A stretch of DNA of 64,000 bases, from positions 1 to 64,000 of the forward strand of contig JAAILG010001443.1 in assembly GCA_012026655.1 (NCBI GenBank), given 5' to 3'. Within the stretch, counting starts at the first letter, position 1; each line of letters begins with the position of its first letter. The notes under the pieces were generated by a model. That model did no database searches, was not told where the DNA came from, and saw nothing but the letters and a program-made list of their open reading frames with translations. This document shows, in pieces, positions 53,601 to 63,694 of the stretch. The stretch comes from Hydrolagus affinis (taxonomy: Eukaryota). Made by a program: the position numbers and the translations under genes.

Positions 53601-56600
53601 GTCTATCTGGAGGACATTGCTGTGTGTAAGCTGGCTACCGCGTTTCAACCACAAGATACACAGTCAATCTACTTCACAGTATATCCTTTGAAGCGCTGTG
53701 AGATGTTTTGACTACGTGATAATAATAATCATAATCCTTGCATTTGACACAGCATCATATCACAACGTTCAGATATCCCAAATGGAGGCAGCGGGCAGTG
53801 GAGTGGGGAGAAAGCAGATCAGAATTCATATATATATAATATATCATATATACGCAAATATGATCAGGTTATATTGCAAATTCCTTACATCTGTCGTGCA
53901 TGAAATATATTTCCTCCCAATGACAGGTTCAGTAAAAGGATCAGATTGACAAAATGTAAAGGAAATGATTGTCTTTGTGCTGTTCATTGATTTAAGGAAT
54001 CACACCAATTGCTGTAAATGGTTCCACAGGGGATTATTCATTAGTGCAATTAATGTTGAATTCCTTTTGTTTTTTGACAGATTTACGGAAAAACAGAACA
54101 CCAGGATCTGGCTCTGACTTATTGGGAAAGGCACAAACGTTATGTCACTTTCAAGCCCACATTAATGAATTTTTTTTAATGGAAAAACAAGACTCATTTT
54201 TACCCCATAGATCTATAAGGATATTTTTATTGGTAAGATTTGTTGCATTTCTATATATGCAATGTCTCACTGGATTCTGATCTAAATCAGTGTAACTTTC
54301 AATTAACCACACAGACAGTTCCACAAAACCAATCAACGGAAACCATTCAATAAGTCTTCTATTTGCAAAAGCTTTGACATCCTTCGATAGAATAGACAGC
54401 AGAGCTTCGCAAAAGCAATGGTGTTAGAAACTACGTTTCTGCCTGTTCAAACCTAATGGCCCCAGCTAGAATAAAGCATGCAGCAACTTTTAATACCATT
54501 AGAATCATAGAATATTACACCACAAAGGAGCCCCCCTTGGTTCATCTTGCCCTTGCCAGCTCTTTGGAAGAGTTAACCAATCAGTCTCACTCCCTCGCTC
54601 TGTCCCCATATCCTTCATATTCCCTTTCAGGTACCTAACCAATTCCCTGTTTCTACCACCCTTTCATTCCAAACTGTAACTATTCTCTTCAACCACCAAT
54701 ATTGTGCCGTCCCATCTCTTGAAGGCATTTGCTTTTCGTTCCCTGTAATGGGCTGTAGTTTCTTCAGTGCTGCTTGCTGATTCACACCTATGGGTATTTT
54801 ATATGTATGAGCCTTCGCACTGACGTCCACACATCCACAAATGCGCATTTCCATCGCATATCAGCAAGGAGCCAGAACCACTGTTGCAGTTATATCAATG
54901 GGAAAACTATGCGCTTTTAGTGGGTTAGATTACCGTTGTACCTCTACCACACTTAGCCATTATGGAAACCAACTTATTCTTTATTTAACTTCACACAAAT
55001 GGAAGAATCAACAAGGCCACAAGTGATTTTTTATGCAAATGTGAATAATTTGGAAGGCTCAGATATGAAGAAAAATGACTCATTCCAAGGCAAATTAAGT
55101 TTGCAAATGTCTGTATATGCATAAGAGTGATTTAAACCACCACTTTGCTACCATTTCCTCCATACATCAACAGTCTCAATAATATCACAGGGAAGACTAA
55201 TGGTGAGCATTTATTTGAAGACAAACTTCTCTGACTGAATTTCATCGATTAATAAGGTGGACAGATGGTCCACCAGTCAACTGTCAAGAATTGCCAAGGT
55301 AGTTACAGAGAACATTTTAATTAACTGTTATGAATTATTCATGCGGTGCCTGAGATAGATCACACATGAGTGACTTGCTCAGCACCTAAACCCAATGTTG
55401 TTAGCCCTGTCCTGTCATTTTTGGCAAGTGTTGTAGAATGCATGAATCAAACTGAATGTGTCTTTGCAGGCTCCAGTCGTGGATTGCTCCACGTACCCAA
55501 TATCGCACTGCAATATCCCTCTCGTCTTATGCTATTCTAATACTAACTGTTTGATTTATTCCAGTGTTGATATAAATTTGGCATCAGACCTTTGCCAAAA
55601 GCTCAGAATACGCTATGCAGTCTGGAATCATATTCAAATCAGAATGCAAGGGTTTAACTGGGCAATCACTGTTGTGTTTCCCTTTGTATCAGCAATCAAA
55701 AGAACTACAGTAATTTAGTCCATTGATGCGTCCAACCCAAGTCCATTGCCGGGTTTGGAGTCTTCAGTCAGTTGAACCTGCATAAGGACCTTGTGAAGGA
55801 AGCTTCTAAAGTGCCCTTTGATTCTTCAAATTGGTGTCTTTAGAGAAGCAGAACCTGCCAGCCAGCCGACCAGCACCAAATTATACTGAGCAATTCAGGA
55901 CCACTCTGTATTGGGGACAAAGTCCATAGCAGAATAAGACAGGGAATTGTGCACGCATAGGAACAGGAGTAGTTGGCCATTCAGTCCCTTGATCCTGTTC
56001 TGCCATTCTATTAGATTGTGTACTTCAACTCTATTTATTTGCCTTTGCTCAATATCCCTTGATGACCTTACCTAACAAAAATCTATCAACCTCAGTTAAT
56101 TGATCTTGCATTCACAGTCTTTTGGGAGAAGAGTTTCAGGTTTCCACTACCTTTTTTGTGGCAACATAACACTTAATGTTCAAAAGATTTTCCTCACAAG
56201 TTTACGAGGGAGAGATGTTCCAGGTGACTATTTACAAATGCTTTGCAAATTTACAACTCAAATACCCACCTCAATATTGCCAATCCTTTGTGCGGTGGGG
56301 GGGAGAAGATTGTTTCTGTCATGGGTCAGCCTTGGTCATTGATTTGAATTAGAAACCAACGACAAGGGACCAGAATGCAAAATAAATTGAAGACATTCAT
56401 CTCATCTGAAGTCTATATGTTAAGAGTTTATTCAACAGGTAGATAATGATAATAATACTTACATTTAATATAGTGCTTTTCACATCAGGAGGACATCTCA
56501 AATGCTTTATACAATTTGTACACAGCAAAATCCATAAGCAGTCATGAAGTGAATGACTGACCTAGGAGATCATCAGCCAGTACAGTAAGAGAAACTCTCG

Positions 56601-58663: not shown

Positions 58664-59899
58664 CTGTAAGACACAAAAGTAGAGGAGACTCCGTATTAAT
58701 AATAATAACCCTTACATTTGATAAGGTACCTTATCACGTCAATGAGACGTCTAAAAGCACTTCACAAAATATAAGTGAAGACTGTATTTGTGGGTGAAAC
58801 ACAACAGCCAATTGCGCAACATTCAGTATTTGCCTGCTTTTGGTGGGCAGTAGTCACTCTTGCGGGATTTAAATAAATTCATATATATTATATATATATA
58901 TATATATACTGTATATAAAATGCAACGTCAACTTCCTGAGACTTTACTTCCTTCGGATGAGATGTTAAACCGAGATCCCGTCTGCCTGTTCAGGTGGACA
59001 TTAATGATCCCTTGGCACTACTGTTTTTAAAGAGAGAATGGACTTTCTTCAGGTGTCCTGGCCAACAATCACTCAAATTTTAAAAAATTCACTTCATGAC
59101 TGGTTGTGGGACACAGCTGTGAGCAAATTGGCTGCTGTGTTCATTCACGAATACAAAGTCACTCCACTTCACAGTAAAATCTTGAAGTGCTTCGGGATGC
59201 CCTCCCGATGTGCCAGGTGCTATACTAAATTCAAGGATTATTTTTATTACGCCTCTTCAATGCTTTATTTAACAGCACTATAGCAGACAAACAAAGGGCC
59301 AAAGCTTACATCTGGTTTAAAGGCCAAGAGCAGCAATGGTTCTCTTGGTACGGTGTCGTTTGCAGTCAAACCTTTTTTTTTGCTGCTGCCAGTGCACAGT
59401 GGATGTAAATTTGTTGCATGCCCAACAAAAGGTTAAAAATAATTGCTAAAATTATTCCAAAAGACATCATTGAGGCATTTGCTTGATCCAATGGAGGGAG
59501 CAGGCTTGAAAGAGGAGGATGTTTGTATGTGTTTTTACAAAGCAAAGATTATGGCAATAAGTCTCTGCCAATTGATGAGTTACTATTAATTGGCATGTGT
59601 TCTGTACCCCCCATTCTGTACCCCCCGTTACTTCCATGTCAAAGATGCTATGTCATTGTAAAATGTGCTGTACTCCTGTTCTCAGACTCCCTCTTCGCAC
59701 GGTGACATCCACTGCCATGCCAGTTTGACATGAAAGTTGCTAGAGATGTCAGATGGGAATGCCTTGTTGAGCTTTGAACACAGTAAAGCATCAGTGTGTT
59801 AAAGTGAGTTTCTTTCCTCAGGCAACCTGCGACTAGAGAATTCATCTGAGATCTGGCGTGTGACTGAATCAGAACCGAAGGGGAATATATTCCCCGCAC

Positions 59900-60206
59900 T
59901 ACAGTCCGTCGATATGGAAATTTTCCGATATCTATATATCGGTTTGCCCATATCGATATATCGATATCGCGGGGTTTTTTGTCCTGCGCATGCGCGCGTA
60001 TTCGGGGGTGTGCTCGCATTCTGATGTGCTCGTGCATTCGAATATTGACAAGATAAGTTGAAGAAGTTCGCATTGTACCAATATATCGCCGGACACGATA
60101 TACCGATATTTTTTATATATCGAATTTTTTGATATACCGATATATTAGAATTTCCAATATCGGCATATCGATATGAAAAATTATACCGATATAACGCCGG
60201 ACCCTA
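59900..60206. mobile_element. Non-autonomous hAT-type DNA transposon (MITE), ~307 bp
   Basis: Imperfect TIRs: left tacagtccgtcgatat, right reverse complement tagggtccggcgttat. 8-bp TSD ccccgcac (59892-59899) / ccccacac (60207-60214). Subterminal (C)CGATAT/ATATCG repeats; CpG-rich. Confidence 0.8.
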
Positions 60207-60679
60207 CCCCACACATTCCACTTTGCAAAAGTTTCAAAGTATGAAGGATAACTCTCTTAATTTCACACACACCTAAACAAAACAAAAAGTGAGTAACTTT
60301 TTTTTGAAAGAGAATGTTTACATTACAACTCAACAAAATAATTCCCCCGGCTGCGATGTGATGGCGATACAGTGGACACAATTTCTCAACTATATTGGAC
60401 CACTTGCTCCATTCTACGGCTGTTTTCTGGGACACAGCTATGCGCAAACTGGCTGCCCTGCATCTCGCTCCCTATCCACACAGTCACTCCCATTTCACAG
60501 CAAGTCTCGTGAAGCACTTTGAGACGTCTGTCCGTCACGATAAGGCACCAATTGTACCAATTGCAAGGATTATTCTGATTAGGATTCATCATCGGTTACA
60601 TTTATACAGCAGTAAGCATTCCCCCGCACATTTCCTGGCAGTTAAAAGAAATGGGTCGTTTACCAGGTCCTTGGGTTAT

Positions 60680-60839
60680 CTACATCTGGGCATTCCTTCT
60701 TCGTCTTCCAAAGGCTGTGGCCCCCGTGTTGGTTGGTACAAAGTCACTGCTGCCGATTCCCCCTGTCCGGCTCAGGAAGTCAGCCAGGCGGTGAGTCGTA
60801 CATGTGGCTGTCTTACAGGCTCGCTTCTGCACAGTGACA
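60680..60839 (-). CDS. CALCA: CGRP-specific exon (exon 5): VTVQKR / CGRP 37 aa (60710-60820) / GRRRR NAQM
   Basis: Not in the ORF track. Manual translation after acceptor ttttttactctgaagcag|T gives (S)VTVQKR-ACKTATCTTHRLADFLSRTGGIGSSDFVPTNTGATAF-GRRRR-NAQM-stop (TAG at 60680-60682). It has the Cys2-Cys7 ring, 37 aa and a Phe-amide signal. A likely donor ctg|gtaaac lies at 60664/60663 shortly after the stop. Confidence 0.97.
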
Positions 60840-61462
60840 CTGCTTCAGAGTAAAAAAACAAACAACATGCATTTATCCAGCTCATTGTGTTCACATACAT
60901 GACTCACTGCTTATCAGACTTGATTTTTTGTTCTTTCAATGAAAGCCTGGGGATGGGGGGTGGGGGGGAGTGCGGGGAGAGGTAAAAGGTAAATTTACCC
61001 TTTAATTGGGTTAAATGTTTATAGTCAATGCATTTTACAATATATTCTGTAAGGCGCTTTGAGATGTCTCAACGATGTGAGAAGACGCCTCATCAATTGA
61101 AGGAATTATTGTGATTAACAATCACATCTAACCCACTGAATACCCACCTTTGCACTATTTTACTGACACCAGCCAACTGGTAGTTAAAGCTCTTGGCTCA
61201 ACTTAAACAGGAAAAAAATTCAGGTCACATCATGACTGGATATTGTGTTCCGGTCAGAGGCTGGAGGGTGGGAGCAGAGAGCCACAGAGTAAACCTCATA
61301 CAGTAAACCCCATTTGGTGTCAATTGGGAACCATACATTTAATGTGACTTATGCACAGTATGAGTTATGTCAAAGTTGCTTAGAATATAAACTCTTGAAT
61401 GCGACTTGAGCAACTGTGTACGAATTAGGCGTTACAGGGAACTCTGCACTTGGAAACCGATT

Positions 61463-61501
61463 GGGAGGGAGGGAGGGAGGGAGGGAGGGAGGGAGGGAGG
61501 G
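61463..61501 (+). repeat. (GGGA)n microsatellite, (CCCT)n on the CALC sense strand
   Basis: About 10 units just 3' (minus sense) of the CAG|GTAAGA element. Confidence 0.95.
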
Positions 61502-61512
61502 AAGAAATGAAT

Positions 61513-61540
61513 TCTTACCTGAAATAATGTAAAAGTCAGA
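61513..61540 (-). promoter_or_regulatory. Zero-length-exon element (pyrimidine tract-CAG|GTAAGA) in intron 4
   Basis: Minus strand reads tctgacttttacattatttcag|gtaagaattc. This is the same arrangement as the core of the human CT/CGRP intron-4 enhancer (pyrimidine tract followed by CAGGUAAGAC). Confidence 0.55.
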
Positions 61541-62140
61541 AAAGTTTCAAAAAGCAACCGGATGCAATGAAATGCACACTGACACCTCCACCTGGACTGT
61601 TTCAGCGAACACACTTGTGTATGTATATTAGATTCTCTTTTTTTCCCCCGAAAACACTCAAGATACGACATGAATGGACTTTGCTCTACTCTTTAATTTA
61701 CTCTTATTTGTTTAAGTGAAACTATGATCACTATTATTCCACATCACCAATGGCATCAAGGTGTAAGGCTGCACACAATAATTTAAATGCAATGCGAGTG
61801 ATGTTATCAACTCAGGGAAGGATCTCGACTTGAGATCCTCAGAGATCAACTCAGGGAAGGATCTCGATTGATTCATTTAAACCGCCCACCTACCAACACC
61901 CCCACCAGTCAGTTTGCAAAATACTATTGGGTTCTCGATTTCCAGAACTCCCGTTCAAGTAGAGAAATGAGCAAATGTATCCCTGGTAGAAAAATAAGTT
62001 TATTGAAACAAGAGACTCATGCCATGCACCAAGAAGCATTCATCGAAACGACACATTACTTACTTACTATACAAGTCACCGCAAAACGTGAAACGTAATG
62101 AGGGAAAAAAATCAGTTTGTTTTAAAGCTAAAGTGGTCGG

Positions 62141-62146
62141 TTTATT
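62141..62146 (-). terminator. Poly(A) signal of the calcitonin exon (AATAAA); alternative AATAAA at 61999-62004
   Basis: Plus-strand tttatt ~270 nt after the calcitonin stop, followed on the minus strand by a U-rich stretch (gattttttccctcattacgtttcacgtttt). Confidence 0.6.
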
Positions 62147-62350
62147 GACGGCCAGCTAAGCGAGGCTGCTGCACTATTCTAACCAATGTCCATGTCAAGC
62201 ATTCTCTGTTGAAAATGGAGTCAAGACGGGGAGGAAGGAGGAGGTGGTGGTGGTGGGAGGGTGGGGGAGAGGAAAAAAAACATAGCACTTTATCAGGCTT
62301 TCTCGTCATTCAAGTATCTGAGATCCATCCATCCATCCATCATTACAAAC

Positions 62351-62416: not shown

Positions 62417-62615
62417 TTAGTTATTTTCGTAGGGCTCCCTGTAGTTTGCATAGCGTTGGTTTTCCAGCCCGGCCAGAATGCTCCTTTTCTTGCCGGGGGT
62501 CGCGGATCCCACATCAGTGCGTTGAATGGTTTGCAATTTGTGCAACTCCTGGGACAACTTGCCCACCACACAAGTGCTAAGACTGGTGCACCGTTTGGCA
62601 ATGGGTCTATCCAAG
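62417..62615 (-). CDS. CALCA: Calcitonin-specific exon (exon 4): LDRPIAKR / calcitonin 32 aa (62495-62590) / GKKR / 21-aa C-terminal flanking peptide
   Basis: Acceptor tttctctccgcag|C at 62616/62615 is phase-compatible with exon 3 (AG+C = Ser). It encodes [59 protein letters not shown]-stop, with the Cys1-Cys7 ring, C-terminal Pro, and Gly amidation plus dibasic cleavage signals. Confidence 0.98.
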
Positions 62616-62657
62616 CTGCGGAGAGAAACGTGCAGAAGAGATCTCATAGTAACGAGG

Positions 62658-63126
62658 CATGCGGGACCATGCAGATACCCTGTCTCACAAGGCAAACCAA
62701 CCAACCAACCATTGTTAACATGCAACAACAAAAAAACACACTCCTCTGTCCTGTACTTGGCAAACCGAATTCCTTAATGTCAGGCATTCACTATCACTGC
62801 TACAAGTCAGGTCTTTCTAACGCGAATGCATGTCATGCTTTTCTCTCTTTCTATCTCTCTCTCTCTTTCTCGTTGCATTATTTTTTTTGAATCCAAATGT
62901 GGTTATGCGAAACATTTCGAAATGTCCTCTCATCCAAGTCTGACCATGCATTTGATTGGGTTAATTGTCGAAACGAAAACGAGCTTCCACATTCACAATG
63001 GACATGCATAAAACAGGCATCTCGCCACACTATACACACACACTCACACACACACAAGTCGCATCCATGACTAGCATTTCCTTGCAGCAGGCACATGGAG
63101 GTTGTCCTAACGCTTTCTCCCATGCA
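62658..63126 (-). promoter_or_regulatory. Cluster of RBFOX-type (U)GCAUG splicing elements in intron 3 upstream of the calcitonin exon
   Basis: Sense TGCATG at 62668-62673, 62719-62724, 62945-62950, 63003-63008 and 63121-63126. GCATG at 62658-62662 and 62834-62838. Confidence 0.7.
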
Positions 63127-63562: not shown

Positions 63563-63694
63563 CTGTTGCCATCTGGTACTTGTTGTTCCAGTTCCTCCGC
63601 CATCATCTGCATGAACTCCCTGACCAACGCGTTCAGTAGCCTCCGGACTTCATAATCAGTAAGCGCCACCCTATCGGATGATTGTAAGATGGAT
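63563..63694 (-). CDS. CALCA: Calcitonin/CGRP precursor, common pro-region exon (equivalent to mammalian exon 3)
   Basis: Minus strand reads ttctcgcccacag|A TCC ATC...GGC AAC AG|gtaaca. The exon is 132 nt, phase 2/2, and encodes (R)[43 protein letters not shown](S), matching the '[22 protein letters not shown]' pro-calcitonin motif. The signal-peptide exon lies beyond the window end. Confidence 0.96.

Follow-up and report, generated by a model that had tools for sequence, protein, structure and literature searches.

A pseudo 5' splice site in the calca gene of the chimaera Hydrolagus affinis, a candidate orthologue of the mammalian CT/CGRP polyadenylation enhancer

The minus strand of the window (the whole 64,000-nucleotide stretch of Hydrolagus affinis contig JAAILG010001443.1 that we analyzed) carries calca at 60.6-63.7 kb, with exon 3, the calcitonin (CT) exon, and the CGRP exon. 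The proteins closest to the CGRP exon and to exon 3 are those of Callorhinchus milii (94% and 95% identity, respectively), and the span from exon 3 to exon 5 is 2.7 kb. The features considered here are listed in the order of transcription; L001 and L002 are a teleost and a bird-type locus described further below.

63563..63694, minus strand: common exon 3, with donor CAG/GTAACA (here and below, the slash marks the splice junction)
62658..63125, minus strand: cluster of seven GCATG (Rbfox-type) motifs in intron 3, of which the two closest to exon 4 lie at -47 and -57
62417..62615, minus strand: coding part of calcitonin exon 4; the acceptor AG ends at 62616
62188..62224, minus strand: 3' splice-site-like block (pyrimidine tract, CAG ending at 62206) in the calcitonin 3' untranslated region (UTR), 201 nt before the poly(A) signal
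62141..62146, minus strand: upstream AATAAA, not conserved and in no common block; substituted at 62143 in organism B
61970..62012, minus strand: poly(A) block of exon 4, conserved in L001 and L002; its AATAAA occupies 62004-61999
61519..61539, minus strand: acceptor half of the fused site, consisting of CTGAC (A at -18), 11 pyrimidines in 15 nt, and CAG; strong in the chimaera, sequence not conserved
61502..61524, minus strand: conserved core, a pseudo 5' splice site CAG/GTAAGAA with a U/C-rich tail; the third block common with L002 above shuffles
61463..61501, minus strand: (CCCT)n microsatellite, absent from L001 and L002; L002 has a U-rich tract there
60664..60842, minus strand: CGRP exon 5, with a tandem acceptor (start at 60842 or 60839), a stop ending at 60680, and a candidate donor at 60663

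The CGRP exon begins at a tandem AAG/CAG acceptor (window 60840-60844, minus strand) that is also present in L001 and L002 and fits annotated S/SS isoform pairs of sharks, teleosts, and turtles. We rejected a 3-nt microexon at the fused site, since its CAG has no AG ahead of it and the tandem acceptor accounts for the isoform pairs. A 39-nt in-frame cassette at 60946-60908 (minus strand), with a C-rich acceptor and a GTGAGT donor and only 68 nt before exon 5, was also dropped, as none of the chondrichthyan precursors inspected (126-127 aa) supports it. More broadly, 113 of 115 parsed precursors, among the 120 matches listed of 334, show the usual spacer and no coding insert from the CT-CGRP intron; the remaining two are CT+CGRP read-through models, and 7 of 122 precursors in the set did not parse.

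Downstream of the poly(A) signals, the sense strand reads CAG/GTAAGA, with CAG ending at 61519 and GTAAGA occupying 61518-61513. This is the fused 3'/5' splice site of the initial annotation, and we find it exactly where it had been placed, at the 61519/61518 junction of the minus strand; the accompanying distances of ~480-620 nt are also borne out, the AATAAA hexamers at 62146-62141 and 62004-61999 giving 622 and 480 nt, respectively. The order of elements is a branch-point-like CTGAC (61539-61535), a pyrimidine tract, CAG/GTAAGA, AATTCATTTCTT, and the (CCCT)n run. The word CAGGTAAGA is found only once, counting both strands of the window, and among the 99 GT dinucleotides between the CT stop and exon 5 the site comes closest to the donor consensus (8 of 9 positions). 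It has no stable fold (z = -0.8, 0.2, and 1.0), and an Rfam search yielded nothing beyond one weak chance match.

Under a strict definition of a fused site (at least 11 pyrimidines in 15 nt, YAG/GT, and 8 of 9 matches to the donor consensus), this is the single match in 128 kb, that is, in both strands of the window. With the window itself as background, Markov models predict 0.3-0.5 strict sites per 128 kb, and P is 0.003-0.005 for one such site in the 1140 nt from the second poly(A) signal to exon 5; these cut-offs were set post hoc, and looser ones raise P for the same stretch to 0.03-0.04. That the window contains one fused site is unremarkable, but where it lies and on which strand is not. 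Other words resembling a fused site, of lower quality, occur at 56071 (minus strand), 54631 (plus strand), and 7001 (minus strand). Closer by, further acceptor-like sites lie on the minus strand at ~61260 and ~61983, the latter just past the poly(A) signal and within the conserved poly(A) block, and a short direct duplication of ~22 nt lies at 61780-61860, between the poly(A) signal and the site. High-copy interspersed repeats, with very high summed contig depth, occupy 59000-59330, 59835-60335, and 61004-61170.

Two poly(A) signals had been counted for exon 4, of which only the second is conserved: the first lies outside every conserved block and is broken at 62143 in a close relative, organism B, both in its X7 contig and in the one X14 read there (1/1). 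AATAAA at 62004-61999 is likely the working signal. L001 and L002 each have an upstream AATAAA of their own that does not align with that of the window; in L002, the hexamer homologous to the conserved signal is AATACA and canonical hexamers lie upstream of it, so that the working signal of this locus is uncertain. Across the three loci, the length of exon 4 from acceptor to signal is 519-638 nt.

RNA data consisted of two poly(A) single-cell runs (X13 and X14) from one sample. X13 gave no cover on calca exons, whereas sense reads of X14 covered exons 3 and 4 and the 3' UTR at a depth of ~1-2. In the bin 61839-62005, the mean X14 depth of 0.16 amounts to ~27 bases, which we infer to be one read ending ~20 nt past the second AATAAA; the end of this thin cover fits use of the second signal. 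As for close relatives, contigs from organisms A (X5) and B (X7) are unchanged over 61515-61558, whereas X11 contributed no sequence and X12 and X6 one short piece each, neither over the site. Divergence is so low (2-3%; 23 variable positions in 736 nt) that an unchanged stretch of 44 nt is likely anyway (P = 0.25), and the unchanged site is therefore uninformative.

More distant loci came from a scan of metagenome contigs, which returned five loci, three of them vertebrate CGRP genes. L002 is bird-type, has both CT and CGRP exons, and encodes a CGRP exon identical to 12 bird proteins; L001 is a teleost locus, also with both exons, and matches two percomorph teleost proteins; L003 is a teleost-like CGRP paralogue without a CT exon. 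L004-L007 were dropped as non-homologous (44% over 27 residues), and scans of prokaryotes and viruses for relatives produced chance matches or none. The conservation sample thus comprises three loci in three distant vertebrate lineages, two of them distant from the chimaera.

Between the CT stop and exon 5, three local blocks of the window and L002 beat 300 dinucleotide shuffles, and they do so in the same order: the UTR acceptor-like block at 62224-62188 (score 49; 0/300 shuffles), the poly(A) block at 62012-61970 (score 39; 1/300), and the donor site at 61524-61502 (score 31; 2/300). The fourth-best block scores 22, which is background. Against L001, the poly(A) block alone beats the shuffles (score 55; 0/300), and no block rises above them at the donor site. 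Nevertheless, words are shared by all three loci: the only ones of at least 9 nt are CAGAGAATG, TATTTTTCTA, and AGGTAAGAA, one per block (four common nine-mers versus a null mean of 0.12), and the order UTR acceptor-like block, poly(A) block, donor site is the same in the window, L001, and L002. AGGTAAGAA occurs once in the signal-to-exon-5 interval of L001 and once in that of L002 (chance P = 0.0014 and 0.0086, respectively), and it is the best donor match (best U1 match) of the interval in all three loci. Its distance to the conserved hexamer is 480 nt in the window and 320 and 172 nt in the other two.

The paralogue L003 has no block above shuffles and no AGGTAAG in its intron. A decayed remnant of the exon-4 acceptor persists at 1001-1074 (score 52; 0/500 shuffles), with the rest of the exon and the blocks gone; because the whole region was deleted together, L003 is weak as a control.

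Syntenic conservation in the three loci makes common descent of the site likely, the human side of the comparison being a 24-nt core only. Convergence is conceivable because the common word is mostly donor consensus, and the true donor of L003 has the same CAG/GTAAGA. A donor-like word could then have arisen separately in each lineage, by chance or unrelated convergence: it is ordinary donor sequence, 0.3-1 such sites are expected per window, and the close relatives are too alike to discriminate. However, the joint probability of the nine-mer in both distant intervals is ~1e-5 (0.0014 x 0.0086), the order of the blocks is kept, and the match between chimaera and bird goes past the consensus; we regard this explanation as highly improbable.

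What has been conserved is one half of the site. The initial annotation suggested a deeply conserved element, to be sought as YnCAGGTAAG, and this stands for the donor half, through AGGTAAGAA in L001 and L002, but not for the acceptor half. The chimaera has an acceptor half on a par with the true acceptors of the gene (11/15 pyrimidines, CTGAC at -18). In L002, CAG follows a tract of 8/15 pyrimidines, below all nine protein-supported acceptors (9-14); in L001, a tract of 11/15 pyrimidines is followed by AAG, and a further AG lies 9 nt ahead of the junction; and neither locus has a branch-point word at the site. The fused acceptor is therefore not supported as the conserved unit, nor is a role for the (CCCT)n run, which is absent from both L001 and L002. 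After GTAAGAA, chimaera and bird are alike for ~12 nt and then diverge into a CCCT run versus a U-rich tract; the teleost has neither. Over the 30 nt past the donor, the T count is 11 in the window, where 28 positions are pyrimidines, 18 in L002, and 8 in L001, which has no U-rich tail.

These observations bear on the possibility of a recursive splice site. Exon 3 would first be spliced to the AG at 61519, so that exon 4 and its poly(A) site are lost early, and the donor rebuilt in this way would next be spliced to exon 5. The site resembles known recursive sites (zero-nucleotide exons or ratchet points) in its intronic pyrimidine-tract YAG/GT and its strong rebuilt donor, whose 8/9 consensus matches beat the 7/9 of exon 3's own donor, and in the chimaera the acceptor half equals the gene's real acceptors. 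However, recursive splicing is given as rare in short introns in the accessible text of PMC10156609, where medians for sawtooth-defined sites exceed 500 kb, compared with 2.7 kb from exon 3 to exon 5 in the window. Moreover, the acceptor half is not conserved, being weak in L002 and an AAG with upstream AGs in L001, and the L001 site lies just 140 nt before exon 5. Recursive splicing is, in our estimate, distinctly unlikely.

The donor half invites comparison with human CALCA, whose intron 4 contains the pseudo-exon polyadenylation enhancer studied by Lou, Gagel, Berget, and colleagues in 1995-1999. [quoted passage not shown] With 13 nt, L002 has the longest word in common with the core, followed by the window (9 nt) and L001 (8 nt), in each case at the donor site; the longest in L003 is 6 nt and lies elsewhere. 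In the window, the donor is immediately preceded by a pyrimidine tract (11/15) and CAG, whose counterparts in L002 and L001 are weaker. The human pseudo donor is followed by a U-tract, a TIAR site; at that place the T counts of the three loci, given above, range from 8 to 18 in 30 nt. The human CU-rich, PTB/SRSF3-type tract was not kept, since the window matches it at 14/24 in register, no better than background. Thus, whereas the human enhancer has a CU-rich upstream tract, the tract in the window is U-rich and the tail runs into the CCCT microsatellite; likewise, the chimaera site is 480 nt from the signal, whereas the human downstream U-tract is given, in the sources as available, only as >200 nt from the exon.

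The accessible portions of reviews describe the CT/CGRP intronic enhancer only for the human gene, and the accessible text of PMC6283891 states that no CGRP gene from a cartilaginous fish had been reported as of 2018. We found no relevant report of conservation of the enhancer outside mammals in the mostly open literature; older fish and chicken gene papers may note it. The element belongs to a known class; new relative to the initial annotation are the UTR acceptor-like block and the GCATG clusters in these loci.

GCATG clusters precede exon 4 in all three loci, with 7 copies in 948 nt of the window, 10 in 485 nt of L001 (1-485), and 9 in 506 nt of L002 (1-506), against 0.78, 0.4, and 0.4 expected at the window's rate. 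L001 has TGCATG at -34, as in human, where Fox proteins repress exon 4 via UGCAUG at -34 and a second UGCAUG lies at +45 (PMC2777236, as far as its accessible text goes). The likeness to Rbfox control of human calcitonin exon 4 lies in the presence of clusters in 3/3 loci and in this L001 motif; the systems differ in that the human gene has one upstream element, whereas there are 7-10 copies here, the nearest chimaera copy is at -47, and binding is predicted. No yTnAy branch-point word lies within 45 nt of any of the three exon-4 acceptors.

In the reading that we favor, at a probability of about 0.6, the site is orthologous to the mammalian CT/CGRP intron-4 pseudo-exon enhancer and would act as a decoy for U1 docking, helping exon-4 polyadenylation. 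U1 snRNP would dock on the pseudo donor without splicing, and the docked U1 would favor recognition and polyadenylation of exon 4 in calcitonin-making cells. By analogy with human work, U1 together with SRSF3, and with TIAR/U6 on the U-rich tail, would raise CstF64 loading on the exon-4 site, and PTB would compete with U2AF65 on the tract; neuronal Rbfox on the GCATG cluster would block the exon-4 acceptor, so that exon 3 joins exon 5. It is from the human gene that we infer both U1 binding and its effect on polyadenylation.

The sign of that effect is not readable from sequence, and U1 at the site might instead repress exon-4 polyadenylation; for HIV-1, repression of polyadenylation is tabulated for a downstream 5' splice site together with U1 (PMC2874999). 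In the accessible text of PMC10321290 and PMC2874999, however, the human intron-4 element is reported as activating polyadenylation, and we consider repression quite improbable; that the paralogue without a CT exon lacks the site fits either sign.

Returning to the orthologous-enhancer reading, a further element appears to belong with the donor site. The UTR acceptor-like block is the best-conserved noncoding block between chimaera and bird; it lies at 788-824 in L002 and at about 895-926 in L001 and carries CAG/AGAATG. CAGAGAATG is present in 3/3 loci, and the block is 201, 208, and 219 nt from the signal. It opens no conserved reading frame (20, 1, and 6 codons), another AG comes between the tract and the conserved CAG in L001, and the CT/CGRP literature searched makes no mention of the block in its accessible text. 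It is likely a second, upstream anchor, which would cut the terminal exon of 520-640 nt to a unit of ~200 nt. Intron element In100 of Caspase-2 (PMC2082412, accessible text) offers a likeness, a decoy acceptor beside a pyrimidine-rich stretch; however, In100 is intronic and controls a cassette exon, whereas the block at 62188-62224 lies in a terminal exon, upstream of a poly(A) signal.

In 3/3 loci, the poly(A) site is thus bracketed by a conserved acceptor and a conserved donor, and the donor half of the fused site is the conserved half, both of which also speak for a genuine donor whose use is seldom observed. Any transcript escaping cleavage would then be spliced from 61519 to exon 5, creating a hidden, decay-bound exon: a read-through exon 4 of 1097 nt, or one of 687 nt that begins at the conserved UTR acceptor. 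Such transcripts would contain early stops and be removed by nonsense-mediated decay; alternatively, the exon would be in competition with the poly(A) site inside it. Splicing of human exon 4 to exon 5 exists, although from another donor (CCP-II, as described in the portion of the literature available). However, an exon of this kind would be long and would differ in size among the loci (687, 545, and 386 nt), the conserved CAG of L001 is preceded by another AG after the tract, and X14 depth is zero over 61505-61838 and over the CGRP exon, at a gene depth of only ~1-2 where three reads are needed for junctions. We judge a hidden functional donor to be unlikely.

A broader version of the enhancer reading, which we put forward tentatively and hold to be less probable than not by some way, is that, since the jawed-vertebrate ancestor, a hidden exon-like unit has enclosed the poly(A) site, with an acceptor ~200 nt upstream and a donor downstream. 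If this were true, what textbooks describe as the enhancer would make up no more than the unit's downstream half, and factors on the unit's ends would scaffold cleavage, or the unit would be spliced or ratcheted past, disposing of the poly(A) site in neurons.

The study of tissue-specific RNA processing has CT/CGRP as its founding example. The jawed-vertebrate ancestor is roughly 450 million years old. Because the same donor-like word, nearly that of the human enhancer, occurs in chimaera, bird, and bony fish, the CT/CGRP switch is likely as old as jawed vertebrates; conservation among chimaera, bird, and teleost would date it to their common ancestor. Selection would appear to have kept the donor word, the poly(A) block, the UTR acceptor-like block, and the GCATG cluster, and not the CU-rich tract. 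The UTR acceptor-like block would be a new target to seek and mutate in the human gene, and it is the part most worth pursuing.
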